From Defluviitaleaceae bacterium (lineage in GTDB: Bacteria > Bacillota > Clostridia > Lachnospirales > WQUN01): a DNA stretch of 36,282 nt. The DNA lies in NCBI GenBank assembly GCA_009782245.1, contig WRKK01000360.1, positions 1-36,282 on the forward strand, in the 5' to 3' direction. The notes under the pieces were generated by a model, which was given only the letters and a program-made list of their open reading frames with translations, ran no database searches and had not been told where the DNA came from. Of the stretch, positions 4,201 through 15,899 are shown piece after piece; position 1 is the first letter of the stretch, and the number at the start of each line of letters is the position of its first letter. The position numbers and the translations under genes are program-made.

Positions 4201-4723
4201 AATTATTGAAGAAAGTGGCATGAATTTTATTGCCGAAAACGCTTTTTACATTGAAAAATCTCCAATATATGCGGCGTTAAACAAACGTACAAAACAAAAC
4301 GAAAAGGGCATTAGTTCGGTGGAATTTATTCGCCGCAAGGGAGGAAAATTGCTATTTATCGAGGCAAAAACCACTTTTCCCAATCCTGATAATCCGCCAA
4401 AAGAAAATCCCCAGCGATTTGCGGAAGCGGTCGCCGAAATTTGCGAAAAATTTATACATTCGCTAAACTTGTACTATGCCATTTTGGCGGGCGTTCACAG
4501 CGAATCACAAATTAACAATATCAATGCAAGCGACAATTTAACCATTGCATTTGTGCTAGTTATAAAGGTTAGTCAGCCAGACTGGTGCAGAATAATAGAA
4601 ACAAAAATAAATGAAACATTACCAATCTACATAAAAAAAATTTGGGATCCAGAAGTTTTTGTAATGAATCACGAAAAAGCCATAGGGCGAAATCTGGCAA
4701 CCCAAAAAAAGGAAAAACCATGA
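4193..4723 (+). CDS. hypothetical protein (176 aa) with a PD-(D/E)xK-like motif
   Basis: ATG 4193 follows the AAAAGGGG SD and overlaps the upstream stop (ATGATTGA). The segment SSVEFIRRKGGKLLFIEAKT has the E/D...ExK spacing of restriction-endonuclease-fold nucleases. This is an inference. Confidence 0.6.
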   Translation: MIEIIEESGMNFIAENAFYIEKSPIYAALNKRTKQNEKGISSVEFIRRKGGKLLFIEAKTTFPNPDNPPKENPQRFAEAVAEICEKFIHSLNLYYAILAGVHSESQINNINASDNLTIAFVLVIKVSQPDWCRIIETKINETLPIYIKKIWDPEVFVMNHEKAIGRNLATQKKEKP

Positions 4724-4830
4724 GCGACTTAAACACCCAACTATGGGCAAGTGCCGACCAACTGCGCGGCACTTTACGTGAAAGAACACGGAATACCCCA
4801 GCCATGCGGAGCAATTTGCGGTGTTGCTAA
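4720..4830 (+). pseudogene. hsdM: 5' stub of a type I restriction-modification methylase gene
   Basis: An ATGA overlap joins it to the preceding gene. It reads MSDLNTQLWASADQLRGTL, the characteristic HsdM N-terminus (LW..AD.LRG). It then continues as unrelated sequence to a stop after 36 codons. Confidence 0.65.
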
Positions 4831-4847
4831 ATTGACACGAAGACAAT

Positions 4848-4873
4848 GCCTGCCTGACGGTGGTCAGGCAGGC
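4848..4873. terminator. 11-bp stem hairpin between the convergent island operon and the GH3 gene
   Basis: GCCTGCCTGAC-ggtg-GTCAGGCAGGC. There is no clean U-tract on either strand. Confidence 0.45.
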
Positions 4874-4921
4874 CTCCACGAAAACCAAAGACTACCACAA
4901 ATAAAATCCCCATAAACCCCG

Positions 4922-7324
4922 TCAACCAGCCGCCAGCACAAACCGCAAAACGTGCCCCGCAGTCCGTTGCATTTCCGCCAAACTAATGCCGCCCTCTTTG
5001 CCATGCGATTCCAACAAAGAGCCGTCGCCCTCCGTGGCAAAAAAACTTTTTCCGCCTGGCATAAGCAAGTCCACCTGTGCCCGAACCCTGTACGCATCGT
5101 TGAAAACCGCTGGAAAATCGGGGTCAATGCCTGGCCGCATCCACCAATCCGTCATAACAAGCCCCGCAAACTGCCACTCGCCGCGCAATACCGTCGTGCA
5201 TAACTCGTGGTGATAATGCCCGTAAACGCCGTTAATCTTGTTGTACGACGACATTACCGTCCGTGGATTGCTCTCTTTTACGCAAATTTCAAAGCCTTTC
5301 AAATGGATTTCCCGCAAAGCCCGCTCGCTTAGCCGTGAATCGTTCTTTATTCTAAAGGTTTCCTGATCGTTGCAGGCGAAATGCTTGGGACAGCCCGCCA
5401 CGCCCTGCGACTGCAAGCCCACCACAACCGCTGCGCCGATTTTGCCCACCAGCAACGGGTCTTCCGAAAAATATTCAAAATTGCGACCGCACAAAACCGC
5501 ACGCATTACCTGCAAGCCAGGTGCCAACAGCACATGAGCCTTTTTGTCGGCAATTTCTGCACCGTTTTTGGTCGCCAGTTCTTTTACAAGTTGCGTGTTC
5601 CATGTCGCCGCCAACGCTGTTGCACAGGGCAACAATGCACAATAATACCGCAACCGTATACCAGAAGGCCCATCGCAAGCGGTAACGGGTGCAACGCCGT
5701 AATCTCGTAGGGCTTGCGTTGTGCCGCCGAAAACGCCAGCATTGCCCAAAACGCCCAGCGGACTGTTCATTATGTAATCGCCACGTGTCAAGCCCTCCAA
5801 CTCCTCGGCGGTTAGCTGTGCAATAAAATCTTCCAACGAAACCTTGCCAGCCGCAACGTCCACCAACTTGTAGCCCTTATCGCCCGTTTGCGGGATTTCT
5901 TGCGGCAACTGTGCGATAATCCGCTCTTTTAGGTTGACCGTTCGCAACGGAACAGGCTCATATTTTTTCGCAAAAGTGCCGTCCGCTTGCGGTGTGGTCG
6001 CATCTGGGATAAGCCTGTCAAAAGCCGCTACTGGAGCGGCTACTTCCTGCAACTGCTCGACAACCTGCAATTTGTCCACCGTTACCACGCCGATTTTTTT
6101 GGCGGAACGCACACATTGCCCTACAAAAATCCCGTATTCGCCAGGCTCTAGCACATAGGCGGATTTATTGCCCGTTTTGCCGCCGTCATCGTAAGATGCC
6201 ATGCTCGCCGCCGCAAACGAAATTTCCAAGGTCGTTTGCTGTTGCGGTGCTAAAATTTCAGTTTTTTGGAATGCCGCAAGTGCCAAACTCGGCTTACCAA
6301 GCAGTCCCTGCGGTGCGGCGTAATAAACCTGCACAACTTCTTTGCCCGCAAATTTGCCGTTGTTGGCAACTTTTACCGAAATATTAACGTTGCCGTCCTT
6401 TTCAACAGGGTTTTCCGCCGAAATCGCAAAATCCGCATAACTAAGCCCAAATCCAAACGGGAACAGAACATCATTTTTCGCAAACGTCTCAAAATAGCGG
6501 TAGCCCACGTAAATATCTTCCACGTAATTATTGAACTCCTCCGCGCCGAAGTTTTCGTAGGTTGGATAGTTTTCGTAACGCTTGGCGATGGTGGTTGTAA
6601 GTTTGCCGCTGGGGCTGATTTCGCCGTAAAGTGCGTCCGCAACGGCGTTTCCGCTCTCCATGCCGCCCTGCCACACGTACAGCAACGCATTTATTTTGGA
6701 TTCATATTTTTCTAGCCACGAAAAATCTATGATATTTCCGCTGTTTATCAGCACTACAACCTTGCTAAAGGCAGCTGTTACCAAATCTAACATTTGCAAT
6801 TCCTGTTTCGTAAGGAAAAAACTTCCCTCTTCAAGCAAGCTGTCCCTGTCTTCGCCAGCACTGCGCCCAATCACGACAACCGCCGTATCCGAGACCGCCG
6901 CCGCATTTTTCACAAGTTCGGCGGTCAGCGGCATTTCGGCAAAGTTGGTTGGCCACTTGCCCCATTCGCCCGTTTCTGGCACGTTTTCGCCGCACCATTT
7001 GCGGTAAATCTCGCAAAGTTCCTTGTTGTAGCTTGCCCCTTTTTTGGCGGACATTGCAGAAATGCCGTCCATTAGGCTGATTCTGTACGGCGGAATGACA
7101 TCGCCGCCAGAGCCGTAACCAACGTAAAAATAATCATGCTGCACCCTGCCAAAAACCGAGATGTTATCGTTAAGCGGCAAAACGCCGTCATTTTTCAGCA
7201 AAACGATTCCCTCGCCAGCCGCTTTGCGGCACAACGCCTTGTAATCTTCCGCCAATTCCCTTGAACCCAGCACCTGCACAGAATCATTGTGCGTATCTTG
7301 TGCCAATAAGTTTTGTTCGTCCAT
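4922..7324 (-). CDS. glycoside hydrolase family 3 (beta-glucosidase-like)
   Basis: 800-aa ORF. GH3 motifs seen: KHFACNDQETFR, and GLVMTDWW holding the nucleophile Asp. The C-terminal part looks like a sandwich/FnIII-type domain. A strong AGGAGGA SD precedes it. Confidence 0.9.
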   Translation of the reverse strand: MDEQNLLAQDTHNDSVQVLGSRELAEDYKALCRKAAGEGIVLLKNDGVLPLNDNISVFGRVQHDYFYVGYGSGGDVIPPYRISLMDGISAMSAKKGASYNKELCEIYRKWCGENVPETGEWGKWPTNFAEMPLTAELVKNAAAVSDTAVVVIGRSAGEDRDSLLEEGSFFLTKQELQMLDLVTAAFSKVVVLINSGNIIDFSWLEKYESKINALLYVWQGGMESGNAVADALYGEISPSGKLTTTIAKRYENYPTYENFGAEEFNNYVEDIYVGYRYFETFAKNDVLFPFGFGLSYADFAISAENPVEKDGNVNISVKVANNGKFAGKEVVQVYYAAPQGLLGKPSLALAAFQKTEILAPQQQTTLEISFAAASMASYDDGGKTGNKSAYVLEPGEYGIFVGQCVRSAKKIGVVTVDKLQVVEQLQEVAAPVAAFDRLIPDATTPQADGTFAKKYEPVPLRTVNLKERIIAQLPQEIPQTGDKGYKLVDVAAGKVSLEDFIAQLTAEELEGLTRGDYIMNSPLGVLGNAGVFGGTTQALRDYGVAPVTACDGPSGIRLRYYCALLPCATALAATWNTQLVKELATKNGAEIADKKAHVLLAPGLQVMRAVLCGRNFEYFSEDPLLVGKIGAAVVVGLQSQGVAGCPKHFACNDQETFRIKNDSRLSERALREIHLKGFEICVKESNPRTVMSSYNKINGVYGHYHHELCTTVLRGEWQFAGLVMTDWWMRPGIDPDFPAVFNDAYRVRAQVDLLMPGGKSFFATEGDGSLLESHGKEGGISLAEMQRTAGHVLRFVLAAG

Positions 7325-8844: not shown

Positions 8845-9324
8845 CTAATACACCACCGAAACACTGCCATCTCTGCCAATAGCACGAAAACAATTCGTAT
8901 AAACCTCAATAAATTCGTATCCTCCGTGTATGGCAATCGAGCGGGCTTTTTCAAGTCCATCTGGCAACGGCTGACCTCTTCTGTAATGCTCAATAATATC
9001 GTCGATAATATCAAGGCGATGCACCTCGTAATCCTCGCCCAAATGGCATTTTGACACTATGCCCATAAAATCGCCGTCAAGTTCTATTTCAGGAAATTCT
9101 TGACGAAGTGCTTCGATAATTTCTTTGGCTTTGCCGTGGTTGTGGATTTTGCCGCCAACATCTAGCTTGCTTACGGTTTCCATATATTGCTTGGAACGCT
9201 GTTTTCTTAATAATTTGTCAATTTTTAGCGGGTCGCCGCCTGCTTTTGTTTCGGTTTTAGCTGTTAAACTTAGCATATAGTCCGTTTCTGTCTTTTGCCT
9301 AGTTCCTAGCATTGGTTTTGGCAC
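8845..9324 (-). CDS. hypothetical protein (159 aa), last gene of the five-gene operon
   Basis: A GTG start at 9324 lies 6 nt after the AGGAGGA SD. No signal peptide or TM segment. No family recognised. Confidence 0.7.
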   Translation of the reverse strand: MPKPMLGTRQKTETDYMLSLTAKTETKAGGDPLKIDKLLRKQRSKQYMETVSKLDVGGKIHNHGKAKEIIEALRQEFPEIELDGDFMGIVSKCHLGEDYEVHRLDIIDDIIEHYRRGQPLPDGLEKARSIAIHGGYEFIEVYTNCFRAIGRDGSVSVVY

Positions 9325-9336
9325 GTTTTCGTCCTC

Positions 9337-9363
9337 CTAATTTTTCTAACGTTTCTAATTTTG
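9337..9363 (-). repeat. 3 x 9-nt imperfect tandem repeat (CAAAATTAG/AAACGTTAG/AAAAATTAG on the gene strand)
   Basis: It spans the AAA+ stop codon and runs into the SD of the next gene. It gives three in-frame TAGs 9 nt apart. Confidence 0.85.
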
Positions 9364-10932
9364 AACAAACATTTTGCGTGATTTTTGGCTTGGTTTCGCA
9401 ATATCCTCTAGCCCTATCGGTTTTCCAGATGCTGGCACAGCACGGTGCCGCCCCCAGTTTCTCACATTTTCAATGCGTTCTGGGGTTGTCTGCGAAAGTG
9501 GAATAACCGAGTCAAATGCGGCAATTACGCTTTCTTCGCTCAAAACAAAGTTGCTATTTGACAAAGTTGCATAAGCAAGATCGCGCAATGTAGATTCTAA
9601 ATCAGCACCCGTAAAACCACTAGTAATTTCCACGACTTGTGCCATAAGAGTTTGCGAAAAGGTTGTTTTTAGGTATCGGCGAGCATACAGCGAAATAATC
9701 TCGTCTCTTTCTTTTGCGGTGGGCAAATCGACAAAGAAAAGTTCGTCAAATCTTCCACGGCGCAAAAGTTCACTGGGCAATAACGATATATCATTGGCGG
9801 TAGCCACAACGAAAACTTGTTTTTTACATTCCTGCAACCAAAACAAAAATTGCCCAACCATTCTGGTAGAAACTCCGCCGTCCCTACTGCCGCTTGTTGC
9901 ACCCGATAAACCTTTTTCAATTTCGTCAATCCACAATATGCACGGCGAAACGTGTTCCGCTGTAATTAGTGCATCTTTAAGCTGTTGCTCTGATTGCCCA
10001 ACGTAACTGCCCTGAACAGTCGCAAAATCCAGCCTGTAAAGCGGCAAATTCCAATTTAGGGCAATCGATTTTGCCGACATTGATTTTCCGCAGCCTGGAA
10101 CGCCCACCAACAAAATTCCTCTGGGCGGCTGTAATCCTCTGGCGCGCAATTCGTCTCTTTTTTCCGCAGTCAAAAGAATCCGCTTTTCATCTAGCCATTT
10201 GCGAAGACCCTCCAAACCGCCCACGTTAGCAAGGTTGGAATCCACTTCAACGCGTTCTAAGCCAGAAATATCGGCAAACAGGCGATCTTTAGCAAAACGC
10301 ACCTCGTTCAAATCGTCTTTTGTGATTTTTCGTTTCGCTATCAAAGCGGCTATTACATTCTGTGCCTCAATCCGAGTTACGCCCGAAAGCATAGATGCCG
10401 CCTCTCGTATGTCTTCGTTGTCCCAATCAATGGGGATTTCGGTGCGATAGTCGTCGATGTATTCTTTTATAATTTCAAACATTTCGGATTCGTCTGGCAA
10501 ATCAACGTTTAGCACCATGCCAAGCCGTTGCAGCTGATTCCAAACAGGGCTGTTGGTAAGTATAATTATAGCACCGCTCGATTCCTCTGCTAATGTAACT
10601 AAATCCAGCATTTGCCGTGCATCGCTGCTATCGGTGCTTAAATCTGGCGTTTCTGTTAGTATCAATGTAAGATACTGGCGGCGTTTCATTTGTTCGCTCA
10701 TAAAATCTATAGCGCCGTATACTGTTTTGTCGTCGCTTACTGCTTTTTCGCTGGCTAAATCGTAAATTCCTTTTGACAAGGTGTGAACAAAAAAGGTCAT
10801 CGATAAATCTGTTGATATATTTTTAAGCATTTCTAATGTGCGACCACGTTCAATAGTGTTTATGGCTATGAATGGGATTCTTGCCACCGCATAGCGGTGC
10901 AAAAGGTCTTTACATTCAGCAATATTACTCAT
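9355..10932 (-). CDS. classical AAA+ ATPase, Ycf46-like (525 aa)
   Basis: Motifs seen: Walker A GVPGCGKS (K283), Walker B ILWIDEIEK (E337), sensor-1 VVATAND and SRH/Arg fingers LLRRGRFDE. The block GKSMSAKSIALNWNLPLYRLD...VSPCILWIDEIEK and the tail IPLSQTTPERIENVRNWGRHRAVPAS resemble Ycf46-type ATPases. The N-terminal ~240 aa look like a degenerate nucleotide-binding domain. A strong AAAGGAG SD precedes the gene. Confidence 0.85.
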   Translation of the reverse strand: MSNIAECKDLLHRYAVARIPFIAINTIERGRTLEMLKNISTDLSMTFFVHTLSKGIYDLASEKAVSDDKTVYGAIDFMSEQMKRRQYLTLILTETPDLSTDSSDARQMLDLVTLAEESSGAIIILTNSPVWNQLQRLGMVLNVDLPDESEMFEIIKEYIDDYRTEIPIDWDNEDIREAASMLSGVTRIEAQNVIAALIAKRKITKDDLNEVRFAKDRLFADISGLERVEVDSNLANVGGLEGLRKWLDEKRILLTAEKRDELRARGLQPPRGILLVGVPGCGKSMSAKSIALNWNLPLYRLDFATVQGSYVGQSEQQLKDALITAEHVSPCILWIDEIEKGLSGATSGSRDGGVSTRMVGQFLFWLQECKKQVFVVATANDISLLPSELLRRGRFDELFFVDLPTAKERDEIISLYARRYLKTTFSQTLMAQVVEITSGFTGADLESTLRDLAYATLSNSNFVLSEESVIAAFDSVIPLSQTTPERIENVRNWGRHRAVPASGKPIGLEDIAKPSQKSRKMFVQN

Positions 10933-10946
10933 TAAAATTCTCCTTT

Positions 10947-10996
10947 GATTTTAGTTGATTTTAGTTGATTTTAGTTGGTTTTAGTTGATTTTAGTT
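10947..10996 (-). repeat. 5 x 10-nt tandem repeat (AACTAAAATC on the gene strand) abutting the SD of the AAA+ gene
   Basis: gattttagtt x5 on the plus strand, with one G variant. It sits between the stop of the 152-aa gene (11004) and the SD at 10940-10946. Confidence 0.95.
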
Positions 10997-11003
10997 AAAT
11001 CCA

Positions 11004-11462
11004 TCAAATCTCGTTTATTTTATAATTCCGAATAAGTACGCTCATTTTGCCACTTCTGTCCGATCGTGCCGAACTTTCCAAGGAAGATTGCATACGGTCG
11101 GCGTGTTCCCGAACAAGGGAGCAATAATGCACCCTGTCCTTTTTGGGAAGTGCGGGCATATCCATTATATCTAGCAAAAACGACAATTCTTTTCGCAAGG
11201 AAAGCAACGCTTGCACGATTGCCCTTTCTTGCCCGTTTGCTCTGGAGATTTCTTTTTGGAATTTTTCCGCAGCGGCATCTAATCTAGCGTTGACTGTGTC
11301 AATTAGTTTTTTGGCAAAACGCTCGGCAACGCCAGATTGCCAGGCAATTTTGCCTTGTTTTAACGCCGTGCGGACGTTTTCGTCGTCGGTTTTTTGCTCT
11401 AGCATATTCAATAATTCCACCCACTCTGCGTAAGTAGTGGGTGGCTGTATCATGCCGCTCAT
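11004..11462 (-). CDS. hypothetical all-helical protein (152 aa)
   Basis: Its start overlaps the upstream stop (ATGA at 11459-11462). No family recognised. Confidence 0.7.
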   Translation of the reverse strand: MSGMIQPPTTYAEWVELLNMLEQKTDDENVRTALKQGKIAWQSGVAERFAKKLIDTVNARLDAAAEKFQKEISRANGQERAIVQALLSLRKELSFLLDIMDMPALPKKDRVHYCSLVREHADRMQSSLESSARSDRSGKMSVLIRNYKINEI

Positions 11463-12163
11463 AATGCCCTAGGCTTACGCCTTATTGCAATGACTGGCGG
11501 TTCAATGCTCCAATCCGGAAGACCCTTAGCCAAAGGAGAATCGTCAATAATATCGATGGTGTCAACAGTCTCAACAGTCTCAACAGTCTCAATAATATCA
11601 ATAGTTTGGGCTGTGCCGTCATATTTTTCAGCGGGGCTTTCTGGTTTTTCTGGTTTTTCTGGTATAATTTCTTCGGGTGCAACATTTGCTACAACTGGCG
11701 TTTCTGGTAAATAAGGCTCTATTTTAGGCGTTATTTCCTTTGTTTCAGGTTCTATTTCAATTTTTATTTCAGTCTCTATTTCAGGTTCTATTTCGGGCTC
11801 TATTTCAAGTTCTATTTCAGGTTCTATTTCAATTTTTATTTCGGGCTTTATTTCCGCATTTTGGGCGGTTTCCATTGTTGGATTAGGAACAGCGGTATCA
11901 ACATCAGCGGCTGCTCCACAAAATTCGCAAAATCTGCCAAATTCTGGTATTTTTGCACCGCATTTGGTACAAAATACAGTCGTTATCGCCGCATTTTCAT
12001 TAGAAAAATTTGGAAAATTTGGCTCTATTTCTGCATTTTGGGCGTTTTCCGTTATTGGATTATGAGCAGAAGTATCAATTTCAACGGCTGCTCCGCAAAA
12101 TTCGCAAAATCTGCCAAATTCTGGTATTTTCGCACCACATTTATTGCAAGTGTCATTTGCCAT
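11459..12163 (-). CDS. double zinc-ribbon protein with an acidic repeat region (234 aa)
   Basis: It has two near-identical C.KCGAKIPEFGRFCEFCGAA modules (CxxC-x11-CxxC). These are followed by EIKPEIKIEIEPEIELEIEPEIEPEIETEIKIEIEPE and IDIIETVETVETVDTIDIID repeats. Confidence 0.8.
   Translation of the reverse strand: MANDTCNKCGAKIPEFGRFCEFCGAAVEIDTSAHNPITENAQNAEIEPNFPNFSNENAAITTVFCTKCGAKIPEFGRFCEFCGAAADVDTAVPNPTMETAQNAEIKPEIKIEIEPEIELEIEPEIEPEIETEIKIEIEPETKEITPKIEPYLPETPVVANVAPEEIIPEKPEKPESPAEKYDGTAQTIDIIETVETVETVDTIDIIDDSPLAKGLPDWSIEPPVIAIRRKPRAL
11559..11594 (-). repeat. 4 x 9-nt in-frame coding tandem repeat (ETV units)
   Basis: gtgtcaaca gtctcaaca gtctcaaca gtctcaata on the plus strand. 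Confidence 0.9.
11745..11855 (-). repeat. degenerate 12-nt in-frame coding tandem repeats (PEIE/IEIK units)
   Basis: Recurring ttctatttcagg / ttctatttcaat / ttttatttc units on the plus strand. Confidence 0.85.
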
Positions 12164-12191
12164 TGTTAATAAATTCCTTTCTAATTTCTAT

Positions 12192-12227
12192 GTCTGTATT
12201 GTCTGTGTTGTCTGTGTTGTCTATGTT
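12192..12227 (-). repeat. 4 x 9-nt tandem repeat (AACACAGAC-type on the gene strand) between the 589-aa gene stop and the zinc-ribbon gene SD
   Basis: gtctgtatt gtctgtgtt gtctgtgtt gtctatgtt on the plus strand. Confidence 0.95.
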
Positions 12228-13996
12228 TACGCCACTTTTAAGCGGCGGCTAGTATCCGACAGTTTGCGGACGTATTCTTCGGGTTTAATTTGCTCCAGCA
12301 GGTTCAAAACTTTTGTGCTTTCGGAATCTTTTTTCGCAAAATATGCCCTAAAATCAACCACTTCGGCAATGACAGCACGGATAATTCCAACTCCGTCTTT
12401 CTTTTTTTTGTCAAATTCATAAGCAATCTGTTGGCGGCGAAGTTCAACTGCTTTTTTTCTGGAAAAATGGTGCAAAATTAAGCCAATGCCGCCTGCTATG
12501 CCCAACAAGCCAAGAAACACCCAGCCGCCACCGTTAAGCATTGCCAATAGCCCAATTACAGCAACTCCGATGCCGCCATACATACAATATTGCTCAAAAA
12601 CTGTCATAGTGTTGGCGGCGTTGGCAACGCTTATTTCCCCTGCGACCATTTTCTCAAATTTGGCGACAAGTTCCGCCTCGTTTTTCCCGTCTACAGTGTT
12701 ATCGTTAAAATTATCAACATTTATCTCGATATTGTGGGGAATTTCCATGCGATTTTTTGCTACAATATCGTTGTAGGCGTTGGAAATCCAATCACGGGAA
12801 AGGGCTATTGCAAATTTTTGCGTAGAAATACTGGCGTGTGCGGTTTCGGGTTTCATTGCGGCATCGGTAAGCAGTTGGGTAAAATCTTTGTGTGTTTCAA
12901 AGGTTGTTTGCAGCGACTGCATATCTTGTTTTGCACGGTTTTCGTCGCCGTCATATTCAATAACTAGTTCCGTTTGCTTGTATTCCTGGCGTAGCGGGAT
13001 TTCTTCCTCATCAAAATCTGTTACCAAAGAAGATAGTATTTCGTCAAGTTGCTCCCGCAGAGCCATTCCAGAGGATTGCTGTTCAAAAATATTTTCAAAA
13101 TACGCATATATTTCTTCGTGAAGATGTGCGCCTTCCATTATTTTTTGCAGTTTAGACCACGTTTTGCTATATTTTTTGAGATAGGTGTATGAATCTCCGC
13201 TAAACGGCTTTTTTTTGAGATTTATAGCCTCCGACCACTGGCTAGTTTGTTGGTCTACAAAGCCAGCTTTATCCGCCAGACGTGTCAGCCATTCCTCTAG
13301 TTGTCGGGCTACAATTCCCTCGGAATCTGCACCGAGCAAACCCGATGCAAAAGCATCAAGTATGATAACGGTTTTTCTGTCAAGCCTTTCTTCGTCTTGG
13401 TTGGCTAGATAGCGTTGTATCCATTTTAGGCAAGGTGCTTTACGTTCGGCACGGCGGCAAATTAAGCCAAATAGCAGAGAAGTTTTTTCGTCGTCGCGTT
13501 TTATGGCCTCACGGACGGCTCTATCGGCTAATTCTTCGTTATCGTTAATCCATGCGGAAATTGCAACCAAACAAGGTGCCAGCCAATAGCCAGGAGCGGC
13601 TAACATTAGTTCTTCGGTTACGGTTGTAATTGTTTCTTTGCGTACTATTTCCAGATCGTCGGCTTGCAAAATGCCGACCGTGTGTTTTCGCACCGTTTCG
13701 TGATGTCCAAATTGGTCTTTTAGTTTATCTCGCAAGTTGCCAATTTTCGCCTCCGCACGAATTAGTGCTTTTTGTTTTATGTCTGTTTGTACAAACTCGG
13801 CAAAATCTGCTGCAAGTTTTGCTACTTCGCTGTTAATTAGCCTGACGTTGTCGTCAACTGTGATTACATGGTTATCAATAACTCTAAGATTGCTACGTAC
13901 TTCGTTGAAACCATCGTTTAGGTTAGCGTTGATGTTCTCGTTGACTCTACTTAAGTTCTTGTTTATTGCGTTAATGATGTCTACTCCATCAGCCAT
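12227..13996 (-). CDS. coiled-coil protein with a C-proximal Gly-rich two-helix membrane hairpin (589 aa)
   Basis: A strong SD precedes it (ataGGAGGAacgtataATG). The N-terminal ~110 aa are an N/I/V/L-rich heptad-like region, followed by a long helical middle. The TM hairpin is YCMYGGIGVAVIGLLAMLNGGGWVFLGLLGIAGGIGLILHHF (aa 470-511, nt 12464-12589), followed by a 78-aa charged tail. Confidence 0.8.
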   Translation of the reverse strand: MADGVDIINAINKNLSRVNENINANLNDGFNEVRSNLRVIDNHVITVDDNVRLINSEVAKLAADFAEFVQTDIKQKALIRAEAKIGNLRDKLKDQFGHHETVRKHTVGILQADDLEIVRKETITTVTEELMLAAPGYWLAPCLVAISAWINDNEELADRAVREAIKRDDEKTSLLFGLICRRAERKAPCLKWIQRYLANQDEERLDRKTVIILDAFASGLLGADSEGIVARQLEEWLTRLADKAGFVDQQTSQWSEAINLKKKPFSGDSYTYLKKYSKTWSKLQKIMEGAHLHEEIYAYFENIFEQQSSGMALREQLDEILSSLVTDFDEEEIPLRQEYKQTELVIEYDGDENRAKQDMQSLQTTFETHKDFTQLLTDAAMKPETAHASISTQKFAIALSRDWISNAYNDIVAKNRMEIPHNIEINVDNFNDNTVDGKNEAELVAKFEKMVAGEISVANAANTMTVFEQYCMYGGIGVAVIGLLAMLNGGGWVFLGLLGIAGGIGLILHHFSRKKAVELRRQQIAYEFDKKKKDGVGIIRAVIAEVVDFRAYFAKKDSESTKVLNLLEQIKPEEYVRKLSDTSRRLKVA

Positions 13997-14044: not shown

Positions 14045-14073
14045 AGTATACAGGTTGGCAAGCTGTTTGTCAA
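14045..14073 (-). promoter_or_regulatory. sigma-A type promoter of the five-gene operon
   Basis: The minus strand reads TTGACA (14073-14068), a 17-nt spacer, then TATACT (14050-14045). It lies about 45 nt upstream of the start codon. Confidence 0.65.
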
Positions 14074-14129: not shown

Positions 14130-14173
14130 GAATGTGAAGATTGCACAGTTGGATAATTGGAAAAATTATCAAC

Positions 14174-14764
14174 CTAAATTTCCAGATAGTTAAATCGGCT
14201 TGTCATAAAGTTGGATATTTTGTTTTGGCGGTCGGTTTCTAGCCAATGTTTGCCGTTTGGGGTTAATTCGAAGTTGTAGATTGCGTTGTTGATGTCTGGG
14301 TTGTAGTTGGTTTTTAGGTATTTTAGGACGTTTTCGCCAACGATAAATTTTAATTTAGGAGAATCCATTAACCTAACTGTGATTTTTTCAAGGCGTATCG
14401 GCTGCGACGATAACGAACGCACACCGAGAGTCAAATAATCCAAACAAACCTCATAAGCCCTAATCTTGGTATTATCGCCTAATATGGTGGCTTTTTCCAT
14501 CATTGGCAATGTTTCAAATGTAAAATCGGCTGGAGATTTTAAGCCCAAAAGTTTCATAAGTGGCGGATTTTCTTCGAAAAGTAGCTCATCTAATCCCATA
14601 GTTTTCCACAAAGGATAGGTCATATGGCAAACCGTAGCACCTGTGTCGAAAAGTGAAATCCATTCGCCGCTTTTTTCGCCACATTCTAATTTTACGTTGC
14701 CGTATAAAAATTTACCTTTGTTGATGTCAATTCGGCAAATAGAGGTCATAAACACCCAACCCAT
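14174..14764 (-). CDS. retropepsin-like (clan AA) aspartic protease
   Basis: SLFDTGATVCHM contains the D-T-G-A active-site motif, and KFIVGENVLKYL matches the C-terminal hhG.d.L motif. There is no signal peptide or TM segment. An alternative start at 14749 (MTSICRIDINKGKF) is possible. The gene overlaps the upstream gene by 23-38 nt. Confidence 0.75.
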   Translation of the reverse strand: MGWVFMTSICRIDINKGKFLYGNVKLECGEKSGEWISLFDTGATVCHMTYPLWKTMGLDELLFEENPPLMKLLGLKSPADFTFETLPMMEKATILGDNTKIRAYEVCLDYLTLGVRSLSSQPIRLEKITVRLMDSPKLKFIVGENVLKYLKTNYNPDINNAIYNFELTPNGKHWLETDRQNKISNFMTSRFNYLEI

Positions 14765-14987
14765 CTATTAACGAAAGCCCCTCGCCAACGCTGTATTTTT
14801 GCGGAATTGGTCTAGGTAAATCGTAGTATTCTTGCGGCGTAAGTATTGCCACAATATCGCCCTTTATTCGGGAGTTTTCCGAATGACCATTGATTATTAT
14901 TAAATATTTATCGTGATATTCCTGCATCATGTCGTCAATTATTACGTCATGTTCCAAAATTTCGTGTTCGCTGTCAAAATTAAACAT
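14727..14987 (-). CDS. small protein (86 aa), paralogue B
   Basis: MFNFDSEHEILEHDVIIDDM... is about 50 percent identical to the product of 14992-15315. It has an AAAAGGGG SD and starts 4 nt after the upstream stop. Confidence 0.75.
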   Translation of the reverse strand: MFNFDSEHEILEHDVIIDDMMQEYHDKYLIIINGHSENSRIKGDIVAILTPQEYYDLPRPIPQKYSVGEGLSLIDGLGVYDLYLPN

Positions 14988-14991
14988 AATT

Positions 14992-15315
14992 TTACCCCTT
15001 TTCTAGTTTTTGTTGGTGTTTTTGATACATTTCATCGGCTAACGCCCATTTGTATAATAAGAAGTCCGTGTTGTGGGTATCGTCCATTTGCAATGAAATT
15101 CCCACCCAAACGCTGTAACCTCGCGGCATTGGTTTAGGAAATTTTATTTTGCTGTACTCCGCAGGAGTTAATATTGCCAAAACATCGCCGTGAATCCGAC
15201 TATCTGTGGACGGCCTGCTGACCGCTATCATAAATTTATCGGGATATTTGTCTTCCATATCCTCGATTATCACGTCATGTTCCAAAATTTCGTGTTCTCC
15301 GTCAAAACTGAACAT
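14992..15315 (-). CDS. small protein (107 aa), paralogue A
   Basis: The preferred start is ATG 15315 (MFSFDGEHEILEHDVIIEDM...). This is by analogy to paralogue B and because an AAAGGGA SD lies 7 nt upstream. The ORF track start at 15357 lacks an SD. Confidence 0.7.
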   Translation of the reverse strand: MFSFDGEHEILEHDVIIEDMEDKYPDKFMIAVSRPSTDSRIHGDVLAILTPAEYSKIKFPKPMPRGYSVWVGISLQMDDTHNTDFLLYKWALADEMYQKHQQKLEKG

Positions 15316-15347
15316 AAAATCGTCCCTTTCTGCTAACCGTTTTTTCC

Positions 15348-15376
15348 AGTATAACACAAAATTTGCTGATTATCAA
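15348..15376 (-). promoter_or_regulatory. sigma-A type promoter of the paralogue/protease operon
   Basis: The minus strand reads TTGATA (15376-15371), a 17-nt spacer, then TATACT (15353-15348). Confidence 0.55.
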
Positions 15377-15430
15377 CCTAGCAAAATTTGCCAAAATTAC
15401 GAAAAAAAGTGCGTTCTCCGCCGAAAACTT

Positions 15431-15459
15431 TTGACAAGGCAGTTTTCATTTGGTATAAT
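15431..15459 (+). promoter_or_regulatory. consensus sigma-A promoter
   Basis: TTGACA (15431-15436), a 17-nt spacer, then TATAAT (15454-15459). Confidence 0.7.
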
Positions 15460-15494
15460 TTCAGCATAACAACCCACGAAACGGAGTGATTACA

Positions 15495-15899
15495 ATGAAA
15501 TACACAAGAGCAGACGAAAACGCCATTAGTTTTCGCCAATACATAGAAAATTTGGAACAGCGGTATCAAGAGGATAGGCGTGAATCCGAGCGACGCTATC
15601 AAGAACACATAGCCGCAGTTGAACGCCGCCGCCTAATCGATTACAAGCAACTGGAACGCCGCCGCATAAAAGCCGAAGAGCAAGCCGAAAAACGTTACAA
15701 CGAAGCAGAAGAGCGCCGTCAAAAAGCAGAAGAACAAGCCGAAAAACGTTACCTTGAATCCGAAAAACGCTACACAGCCGCCGAGCAAGCCCGCATAAAA
15801 GAATACAAAAGCATGAAATGGTTTATCATGGGTAGCGTATTTTTACCTTTTTTGATTGCCTTGATGGTCGCACTATTTCCGACAATACAGCAAAATTAG
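15495..15899 (+). CDS. tail-anchored coiled-coil protein (134 aa)
   Basis: ATG 15495 lies 8 nt after the ACGGAG SD. The protein is R/E/Q/K-rich with internal repeats (AEEQAEKRY x2, RRYQE x2) and one C-terminal TM helix (WFIMGSVFLPFLIALMVALF). Confidence 0.7.
   Translation: MKYTRADENAISFRQYIENLEQRYQEDRRESERRYQEHIAAVERRRLIDYKQLERRRIKAEEQAEKRYNEAEERRQKAEEQAEKRYLESEKRYTAAEQARIKEYKSMKWFIMGSVFLPFLIALMVALFPTIQQN

Follow-up and report, generated by a model that had tools for sequence, protein, structure and literature searches.

A horizontally mobile cassette encoding a predicted retropepsin-like aspartic protease and a small putative partner protein in termite-gut Firmicutes

The 36,282-nt stretch of DNA analyzed here (the window; contig WRKK01000360.1 of a Defluviitaleaceae bacterium) raises the question of why a putative protease of the retroviral type should be encoded in a bacterium side by side with two small paralogous proteins. 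To our knowledge, few retropepsin-like proteases exist in bacteria, and studies have been limited to APRc, RimB, Rlo, SpoIIGA and PerP; we know of none among them with a dedicated small partner or as part of a mobile cassette.

Gene layout and regulatory sites

Three tightly packed genes on the minus strand lie behind a promoter-like site of the sigma-70 type (15348-15376, minus strand), which consists of TTGATA, a 17-nt spacer and TG-n-TATACT and matches at 10 of 12 positions in addition to the extended TG. This arrangement, including the gap and the overlap described below, had been proposed in the preliminary description and is confirmed. The first gene (14992-15315, minus strand) encodes small partner protein A, which is read as 107 aa from an ATG because the family start is MFSF; an alternative GTG at 15357 would give 121 aa. 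After a gap of 4 nt comes the gene for small partner protein B (14727-14987, minus strand; 86 aa), a canonical member of the family, and its 3' end runs into the Shine-Dalgarno sequence and the start of the putative protease gene (14174-14749, minus strand; 191 aa). Since the protease frame is open to an ATG at 14764 (196 aa), the overlap is either 23 nt (start at 14749) or 38 nt (start at 14764). The 191-aa product with the 23-nt overlap is most likely, as all 12 homologues start with M-x-S-I-C and the gene caller also picks 14749.

The -35 box of the window cassette is flanked by two copies of GCAAATTTTG. In most related cassettes a common promoter-like -35/-10 pair can be aligned, the equivalent elements being TTGCCT and TATACT at an equal distance from the small gene, and several of them end in a terminator hairpin. 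In addition, the cassette is bracketed by a 12-nt direct repeat, TAGGTTGATAAT, whose upstream copy (15369-15380, no strand assigned) contains the -35 box and whose downstream copy (14165-14176, no strand assigned) begins at the protease stop codon TAG; such a repeat is expected by chance ~0.01-0.03 times per locus and is weak evidence. Repeats and palindromes overlap the -35 box both in the window and at related loci. An integron attC-like reading of the upstream hairpins was rejected, given that no integrase was found, the evidence was weak and the hairpins could equally well belong to a terminator or operator. Because both gene families recur in ~22 other loci and are under purifying selection (dN/dS 0.04-0.13 for both genes), the cassette is far beyond chance.

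Conserved gene pair and small proteins

Comparison of ~22 unrelated contexts revealed that the conserved unit is one small gene followed by the protease gene. A small gene lies directly upstream of every protease gene or protease remnant, usually with an overlap of 14-17 nt, and a protease without a small gene was found at 0 of the ~22 distinct loci; even a very divergent pair keeps the small-then-protease arrangement. Two small genes are present at just 2 of the ~22 loci, where the duplications were independent. The linkage that underlay the earlier proposal of a co-transcribed trio is therefore upheld at ~22 loci, but for a pair instead of a trio. Moreover, the pairwise identities of the small proteins and of the proteases are strongly correlated (r = 0.95), indicating co-divergence, and one homologue, P0085, is a natural in-frame fusion with a small domain at residues 9-77 and a protease at residues 90-272 (hhalign probability 99.35%, E 6.6e-21). 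The invariable upstream position, the co-divergence and the fusion support the view that the small proteins are probably dedicated partners of the protease. A termite-gut metatranscriptome contig spans the junction of small B and the protease.

Relative to the small gene, the protease frame is shifted by +1 in the window and L003 and by +2 in L001, where the overlap is reduced to ATGA. A programmed frameshift producing a Gag-Pro-like fusion was rejected, because the offset varies and no frameshift is conserved; translational coupling of the two genes thus appears to be the simpler reading.

Decay of the pair was also observed. At four loci (L005, L012, L013 and L028) the small gene is intact and the protease has been destroyed by deletion or truncation, at L037 the protease is decayed and the ATG of the small gene is lost too, and in P0080 a small domain is joined to a protease with an internal deletion; the damaged small genes are those of L037, P0082 and P0087. 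On its own, the surplus of decayed proteases does not reach significance, as the protease is a 2.2-fold larger mutational target (5/5, p ~0.15) and the search was partly biased towards intact small genes. The dN/dS values were discarded as proof of selection on orphan small genes after protease loss, since the remnants have equally low values and dS is saturated; the low values in the remnants suggest instead that protease decay is recent.

In BLASTP, small A and small B share 57% identity over 75 aa (E 2e-29); the multiple alignment gives 53%, close to the ~50% first estimated. Both are acidic (pI 5.1 and 4.3, respectively), as are the small proteins throughout the family (pI 4.3-5.8), which has 42 representatives among 1.84 billion. 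Small A consists of the family core and a unique 30-aa C-terminal extension that replaces the usual GLGxYGxYL tail. The typical small protein (~88 aa) is conserved over its entire length, with flexible aromatic termini (MFSF at the N-terminus, GLGxYGxYL at the C-terminus) that are conserved as well. Its structural model (pLDDT 83) comprises a compact domain with values above 90 and a region of low values at residues 76-86, and the predicted order of elements is b-a-b-b-a-b(-a). No significant structural match of this model was found in PDB (best E 0.8) or BFVD (best E 1.2), and no RHH, HTH or AbrB-like fold or family match was found for the small protein; as modelled, it is a previously undescribed fold. 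The ubiquitin-like or beta-grasp fold once suggested for these proteins was ruled out by the same Foldseek searches. A RiPP-like precursor, with a leader followed by a variable core, was also discarded, because conservation and predicted folding extend over all 88 aa. It is tempting to regard the GLGxYGxYL tail as a pseudo-substrate; however, the protease Shine-Dalgarno sequence and the beginning of M-x-S-I-C-K lie within the tail codons, and this overlap means that the conservation of the tail may act at the nucleotide level.

The predicted protease and its relatives

The putative catalytic motif D35-T-G-A38 is encoded at 14636-14647 (minus strand) and I-V-G-E-N-V-L, which corresponds to the hydrophobic-hydrophobic-Gly-x-Asn/Asp motif of retropepsins, at 14324-14344 (minus strand). 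In the family alignment, L-F/L-D-T-G-A is invariant in 12/12 homologues, and in the second motif, F-I-V-G-W/E-N-V-L, residues F135, G138, N140, V141 and L142 are invariant in the same proportion. The fused homologue P0085 has DTGG and IIGRNVLNYL at these places, and the divergent L046 protein has DTGA. The AF2 model of the protease has a pLDDT of 80 and a pTM of 0.76, one of five models being confident. The best PDB match found by Foldseek is APRc (5c9f; E 5.6e-7, target-normalized TM 0.74), followed by the RVP domain of Ddi1 (E ~1e-3) and the proteases of RSV and HTLV-1, and all of the top 25 PDB matches are APRc, Ddi1 RVP or retroviral proteases. The predicted fold is hence a single-lobe beta-barrel of the retroviral protease type, and by its motifs and modelled fold the DTGA protein is a retropepsin-like aspartic protease, as originally supposed. 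It has no TM segment or signal peptide; a helical insert (residues 45-67) follows DTGA, and the C-terminus is extended by 40 aa that are conserved. The enzyme is presumably cytosolic, single-lobe and homodimeric.

None of the three proteins matched an entry in Pfam, NCBIfam, PADLOC or PHROGs, and profile searches of PDB sequences with the protease and small-protein families found nothing. Below the gathering scores, gag-asp_proteas was hit by 7/12 protease family members (best E 1.9e-4) and Asp_protease_2 by 6/12 (best E 1.1e-3). A DUF7738 match (E 0.002) was confined to 1/12 members and was treated as spurious. No clan AA family model in Pfam or NCBIfam reached its curated cut-off for the protease, the NCBIfam search being empty, and the protease therefore appears to form a new family inside clan AA rather than to belong to an existing one.

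Among characterized enzymes, the closest in structure is the retropepsin-like aspartic protease APRc (RC1339) from the bacterium Rickettsia conorii (PDB 5c9f; PMC4140852), which shares the single lobe and the DTG-type active site. However, APRc is anchored in the membrane, processes itself, lacks a dedicated small partner gene and is 11-15% identical to the window protease, which differs in its lack of a TM segment or signal peptide, its insert at residues 45-67 and its 40-aa extension. RimB (of RimABK) and RloA of Pseudomonas are soluble or secreted retropepsin-like proteases (PMC11957791, PMC12239564); like the window protease, they are free-standing bacterial enzymes that work with partner proteins from their own operon, and a natural RimB-RimK fusion recalls P0085. 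Their partners are ATP-grasp and other enzymes, whereas the partner here is a ~88-aa protein of predicted novel fold, and they occur in Proteobacteria, whereas the present pair belongs to termite-gut Firmicutes and has no RimK-like neighbor. The Pfam family of RimB and RloA gave no match to the window protein at E <= 0.1. Contrary to the earlier remark that free-standing cytoplasmic retropepsin-like proteases are rare and poorly understood in bacteria, RimB is a characterized precedent (PMC11957791). The analogy with eukaryotic Ddi1/Ddi2, which are UBL-RVP-UBA shuttle proteases, is borne out for the protease domain, and the order of P0085, in which an N-terminal domain of ~80 aa precedes the protease, is Ddi1-like; it fails for the small protein, which is not ubiquitin-like in the Foldseek comparison, and a UBA domain is absent here.

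Mobility and possible roles of the partner

All pair loci come from termite-gut metagenomes, and their hosts are uncultured Firmicutes. The family is confined to a few such metagenomes and its position differs from genome to genome, with two MAGs carrying two copies each. Its neighbors include HicA/HicB and YafQ/RelB; one pair lies on a mobilizable element with a serine recombinase and a relaxase, several lie between housekeeping genes (e.g., SecA, transketolase and MreB), and one adjoins an AgrB / radical-SAM / Rce1-like / ABC cluster. A phage or plasmid origin was rejected, as searches of IMG/VR yielded no relative for either protein, and those of the GenBank phage and PLSDB plasmid collections none for the protease. 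The window locus is an autonomous, horizontally mobile cassette of ~1.2 kb.

With regard to function, we tentatively favor a cassette in which the small protein would bind its cognate retropepsin-type protease and restrain its activity. The fusion, the co-divergence and the pattern of decay support this indirectly. It might act as a detached pro-segment or as an antitoxin and might itself be cleaved; if it were lost or displaced, the freed protease could cleave cellular or invader proteins, and the second small gene in the window would represent an extra dose or a variant of the restraining partner. Inhibitory pro-segments are well known from zymogens such as pepsinogen, and the pro-regions of subtilisin and alpha-lytic protease work in trans. 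The ~80-aa N-terminal module, fused to the protease in one lineage and elsewhere encoded just upstream with probable translational coupling, resembles them, although we know of no folded pro-domains in retropepsins.

Such a cassette might behave like a type II toxin-antitoxin (TA) or abortive-infection module. This is suggested by its own promoter-like -35/-10 pair, its multicopy occurrence, the neighboring TA loci, the mobilizable element, the independently mobile AAA+ cassette adjoining it in the window, the acidic small protein and the decay of the protease. Similarity to type II TA modules and fused TA proteins extends to the overlapping two-gene operon with an acidic small first gene, the variable sites near TA loci or mobile elements, the patchy distribution, the decay of the second gene beside an intact first gene and the occasional fusion of both. 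However, neither protein falls in a known toxin or antitoxin family (Pfam, NCBIfam, PADLOC, PHROGs), and the small protein has no recognizable DNA-binding domain, which most type II antitoxins have; this counts against the TA reading. No precedent for an aspartic protease as a TA toxin was found. That the cassette is a TA or abortive-infection module, with a retrovirus-type aspartic protease as toxin and a novel-fold partner as detachable pro-domain, is a rather doubtful proposition, and it would be the first of its kind.

Alternatively, the small protein could be a substrate or cargo of the protease, whose cleavage (in cis where the two are fused, in trans where they are split) would yield an active fragment or peptide, as in Gag-Pro maturation. 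The fused homologue has the same small-to-protease order as Gag-Pro, the aromatic termini are conserved and flexible with low pLDDT at residues 76-86, tandem paralogues that could serve as substrates are found at two loci, and the AgrB-containing neighborhood would suit such a product. Nevertheless, this processing model seems unlikely: the small protein is a compact domain conserved throughout instead of a leader with a variable core, the neighborhoods compared show no conserved export, modification or receptor genes next to the pair, the conservation of the C-terminal tail is confounded by the gene overlap, and orphan small genes persist after loss of the protease.

It is similarly improbable that the small protein serves regulated proteolysis of a housekeeping kind as an adaptor, activator or obligatory subunit, delivering specific cellular substrates or switching the protease on much as the partners of RimB and of other bacterial proteases do, in a cassette neither toxic nor selfish. 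Obligate pairing, co-divergence and fusion, the strong purifying selection on both genes and the loci between housekeeping genes such as SecA, transketolase and MreB would all agree with this, and characterized bacterial retropepsin-like enzymes do work with partner proteins (PMC11957791). However, the family has very few members, all from a handful of termite-gut metagenomes, it is multicopy, differently placed in each genome and repeatedly decayed, and surroundings such as a mobilizable element and TA loci are untypical of a housekeeping function.

Far less probable still is that the DTGA protein is a catalytically dead scaffold or that its fold is a modelling artefact. The single confident AF2 model, the unreached family cut-offs and the empty PDB sequence profile search could be read in this way, but D-T-G-A/G and the second retropepsin motif are kept down to ~28% identity, the top structural matches are all retropepsin-like, and the weak gag-asp_proteas matches center on DTGA independently in 7/12 members.

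The preliminary description had also linked the three genes to the five-gene AAA+ operon downstream. A 177-nt gap preceding the 589-aa gene of that operon contains its own promoter-like site (14045-14073, minus strand; TTGACA, 17 nt, TATACT; 11/12), outside the protease cassette. No terminator-like hairpin was found between the protease gene and this site, so that read-through may occur. Although the operon is adjacent on the same strand and its AAA+ protein matches IetA models (E 7.5e-32), the idea that both form one proteolytic or defense machine comparable to the ATPase-plus-protease pair IetAS is hardly credible and largely refuted by distribution: AAA+ genes were found at 0 of ~21 other pair loci, and Streptococcus satellite phage Javan368 and a Komagataeibacter plasmid each carry the AAA+ cassette but not the pair. 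Pair and AAA+ cassette are together in this window only, the protease gene does not co-occur with an IetA-like ATPase elsewhere, and the protease of the IetAS pair, IetS, is of the serine rather than the aspartic type. The AAA+ operon is a separate, independently mobile cassette. As for the points on which the preliminary description most depended, the DTGA aspartate is conserved in the homologues, the small and protease genes are linked at other loci, and the small proteins belong to no well-known family unrelated to proteolysis.

The family is tiny and so far known from uncultured termite-gut Firmicutes only, and everything beyond the fold and the gene linkage is inference. If the partner is an inhibitor, the cassette would introduce the principle of a protein inhibitor or pro-domain, and hence a new mode of regulation, for retropepsins, and would bring a new class and chemistry of proteolytic toxin to TA or defense biology. 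The small protein would, in addition, represent a new fold family.

Gene layout and protein families

On the minus strand of the window, a promoter-like site (15376->15348; TTGATA, 17 nt and TATACT with an upstream TG, 10 of 12 positions matching) precedes three tightly packed ORFs: small A (14992-15315, 107 aa), small B (14727-14987, 86 aa), which follows after a 4-nt gap, and a protease ORF (14174-14764) that overlaps small B and carries the DTGA codons at 14647-14636 and the IVGENVL codons at 14344-14324. This layout agrees with the preliminary description, except for the protease length of 196 aa given there. Since M-x-S-I-C opens all protease homologues and 14749 is the start in the public gene call, a length of 191 aa and a 23-nt overlap with small B are most likely. 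The sole evidence of expression is a 172-nt termite-gut metatranscriptome contig spanning the small B/protease junction. Pointing away from the promoter of the cassette, a perfect sigma-70-like promoter (TTGACA-17-TATAAT with TG; 15431-15459, plus strand) precedes a 137-aa ORF (region 15431-15899) with a 54-nt tandem repeat (15641-15748, an EEQAEKRY-type coiled coil) and a hydrophobic C-terminal segment, for which no family match was found.

None of the three cassette proteins has a significant match among Pfam, NCBIfam, PADLOC or PHROG models. Among 5.8 billion proteins, a word-indexed search retrieved only 12 relatives of the protease, all from termite-gut metagenomes or MAGs (Defluviitaleaceae, Bacillota and 'Turicibacter'). 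L-x-D-T-G-A and F-x-x-G-x-N-V-L-K-Y-L are invariant across them, including the DTGA aspartate, whose conservation had been proposed as a check. When the family members were scanned with Pfam, weak matches centred on DTGA were obtained to gag-asp_proteas (7/12, best E 1.9e-4) and Asp_protease_2 (6/12). AlphaFold2 on the protease alignment produced one confident model (pLDDT 80, pTM 0.76) and four poor ones. The top Foldseek matches of this model in the PDB are all retropepsin-type, led by Rickettsia APRc (5c9f, E 5.6e-7, TM 0.74) and including Ddi1 RVP domains and the RSV and HTLV-1 proteases. The motifs, model and matches thus bear out the proposed retropepsin-like nature of the protein. RimB and Rlo of Pseudomonas are, with the Ddi1 RVP domain, among its nearest known proteins; APRc, the best structural match, is itself membrane-anchored, whereas our protease has no signal peptide or transmembrane segment. 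Its active-site strand is followed by a helical insert, and its C-terminus is extended by ~40 conserved aa, the last 14 of which are modelled with low confidence. The motifs and predicted fold support membership of clan AA, and the score falls short for any existing curated family. We conclude that the protein represents a new clan AA family of single-lobe aspartic peptidases, presumably dimeric and catalytically active.

The two small proteins are indeed paralogous (57% identity by BLASTP, E 2e-29). A profile search of the indexed collection yielded 40 relatives, and an exhaustive HMMER scan found only 42 among 1.84 billion cluster representatives; the family is therefore very small. Its members are acidic throughout (pI 4.3-5.8), share the signature MFSF...E....KY.DK[FY]MI..N......L.GD[IV][IV]AILTP.EY, and have no match in Pfam or among PDB sequences. 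The AlphaFold2 model (pLDDT 83) shows the element order b-a-b-b-a-b(-a) with flexible ends. Structure search gave nothing significant in PDB (best E 0.8) or BFVD, which speaks against the ubiquitin-like or beta-grasp fold suggested previously. In a different metagenome (3300042635), a 2.3-kb contig (L045) encodes a 152-aa protein (18-476) whose C-terminus is a borderline distant homologue of the small-protein domain (E 7e-4); the next gene encodes a hydrophobic protein of 87 aa that probably spans the membrane, and the contig yielded no protease.

The small gene and protease gene as a conserved pair

HMM scans of all fetched loci for both families, together with two lineages found later, gave ~22 distinct loci. 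In every one, the small gene lies directly before the protease gene or its remnant, usually with an overlap of 14-17 nt, and no protease without a small gene was found. Only the window and the contigs L001/L009 have two small genes. Linkage of the genes elsewhere, another proposed check, thus holds throughout for the pair, and for a second small gene in L001/L009 alone. Small A and small B resemble the single small gene of contig L003 (66% and 64% identity, respectively) more than each other (53%), and the L001 copies are 86% identical; the two duplications were therefore independent.

Pairwise identities of the small proteins and proteases are strongly correlated (r = 0.95, 13 intact loci), and dN/dS is 0.04-0.13 for both genes alike. 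Most telling of all is P0085, an in-frame fusion of 312 aa from the same termite sample, with the small domain at residues 9-77 and the protease domain at residues 90-272. The latter retains the motifs DTGG and IIGRNVLNYL, and hhalign aligns P0085 with the protease family at a probability of 99.35% (E 6.6e-21). Moreover, a very divergent pair (110 aa + 202 aa) keeps the arrangement without overlap. A conserved frameshift fusion was also considered and is excluded, because the frame offset varies among loci.

Four loci have an intact small gene beside a destroyed protease: only residues 160-190 are kept in L005, internal deletions are present in L012 and L028, and the L013 protease breaks off after residue 65. 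L037 has kept just the first protease residues and lacks the small-gene ATG as well, and in P0080 the small domain is fused to an internally deleted protease. This pattern resembles toxin loss in a toxin-antitoxin (TA) module, although it is not decisive. Protease decay in five of five cases has p ~0.15 because the protease is a 2.2x mutational target, and sampling was partly biased towards small genes. In addition, damaged small genes occur in L037, P0082 and P0087, and dN/dS does not separate orphan small genes from protease remnants.

An autonomous, mobile and multicopy cassette

The cassette is an autonomous, mobile and multicopy unit of ~1 kb without a recombinase, and its context differs at each locus. 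It directly follows HicA/HicB in L005, adjoins YafQ/RelB in L017, ends a mobilisable element (TnpW, serine recombinase, MobC and relaxase) in L018, stands beside resolvase or recombinase genes in L031 and L033, and lies between housekeeping genes in L010, L012 and L046. In L014 (1-5952), a bacterial serpin gene and a cluster of AgrB, radical-SAM, Rce1-like and ABC-transporter genes lie immediately upstream of it. Two MAGs carry two copies each. Further contigs from the same termite-gut DNA run align with the window only over 14888-14918 and 15221-15291, where the 5' coding part of the small genes is conserved, and differ beyond it, so several paralogous cassettes coexist in this metagenome. 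No relatives of either protein were found in IMG/VR viral contigs, nor of the protease in GenBank phage and PLSDB plasmid collections.

Most related cassettes have a common promoter-like pair (-35 TTGCCT, -10 TATACT). In four, a strong hairpin with a ~20-bp stem, whose 3' arm carries the -35 box, is present (L013 ~5633-5683, L034 ~21-68, L038 ~291-333 and L018 ~5891-5922); in L018, pairing is kept with a different stem sequence. The hairpin may serve as an insulating terminator, as an operator or as a recombination site. Terminator-like hairpins 3' of the protease were found in L003, L014, L018, L031 and L035. Direct repeats of 104 nt (98% identical) bracket the module in L003 (9621-9724 and 10707-10810; also in L004/L008/L023). 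They comprise the RBS and first 29 codons of the downstream class I methyltransferase gene, and the upstream copy terminates in a stub ORF of 43 aa; this suggests an insertion by which the target gene had its 5' end duplicated or restored. In L042, repeats of ~284 nt (4638-4921 and 5819-6101, 91-97% identical) bracket the fused small-protease gene (5001-5939). They contain many GGGGCAGAGCCCC palindromes, a 100%-complementary inverted arm lies just upstream of the gene, and the last ~40 codons of the ORF fall inside the repeat (GC 0.71). In the window, an identical 12-nt repeat, TAGGTTGATAAT, brackets the cassette exactly (15369-15380, including the -35 box, and 14165-14176, beginning at the protease stop codon); this could be chance, the expectation being ~0.01-0.03 per locus.

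Downstream of the protease lies a five-gene AAA+ operon (8845-13996, minus strand) with its own promoter-like site (14073->14045, minus strand, 11/12 matches); no terminator-like hairpin was found between them. Its products are a coiled-coil protein of 589 aa whose hydrophobic C-terminal segment probably spans the membrane, a double zinc-ribbon protein of 234 aa, and proteins of 152 aa, 525 aa (the AAA+ ATPase, IetA-like, E 7.5e-32; phrog_8638, E 3e-101) and 159 aa. These genes are in none of the other pair loci, and the cassette they form recurs at two places, both without a small-gene or protease homologue. The 589-aa, 152-aa, AAA+ and 159-aa proteins are 54%, 54%, 69% and 48% identical in Streptococcus satellite phage Javan368, where the zinc-ribbon protein has a 22-residue match only, and 33%, 30%, 52% and 42% identical in a Komagataeibacter plasmid. 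The functional link to this operon that had been suggested thus finds no support; here two independent mobile cassettes are neighbours rather than parts of one system. Such adjacency fits an island of mobile and defence-type genes, and the AAA+ operon appears to be a hitherto undescribed mobile cassette with a possible role in defence.

Possible function

The protease thus combines a predicted retropepsin-type fold and intact motifs with a small partner that is obligate, co-diverging and occasionally fused. Our tentative reading, a real possibility that falls short of being probable, is that the partner, acting as a pro-segment in detached form or as an antitoxin, would bind the protease and restrain it, and that the cassette would act like a TA or abortive-infection module. 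The nucleotides encoding the conserved C-terminal tail of the small protein are also the Shine-Dalgarno sequence and first codons of the protease, a caveat for any pseudo-substrate idea. It is unlikely that the small protein is instead the substrate, cleaved in the manner of a polyprotein. Equally unlikely is ordinary regulated proteolysis in which the small protein serves as adaptor or activating subunit, a part that RimB partners play (PMC11957791). A pseudo-protease or modelling artefact is very improbable given the invariant motifs, and coupling of the trio with the AAA+ cassette is hardly credible, as each occurs without the other elsewhere.

Full-text literature searches found no retropepsin-like protease tied to TA or phage-defence systems. 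Significance is limited because the family is so narrowly distributed, in uncultured Firmicutes of the termite gut, and because its function is a prediction. Within these bounds, we rate as new a predicted clan AA family with a dedicated partner of apparently novel fold in a mobile cassette.
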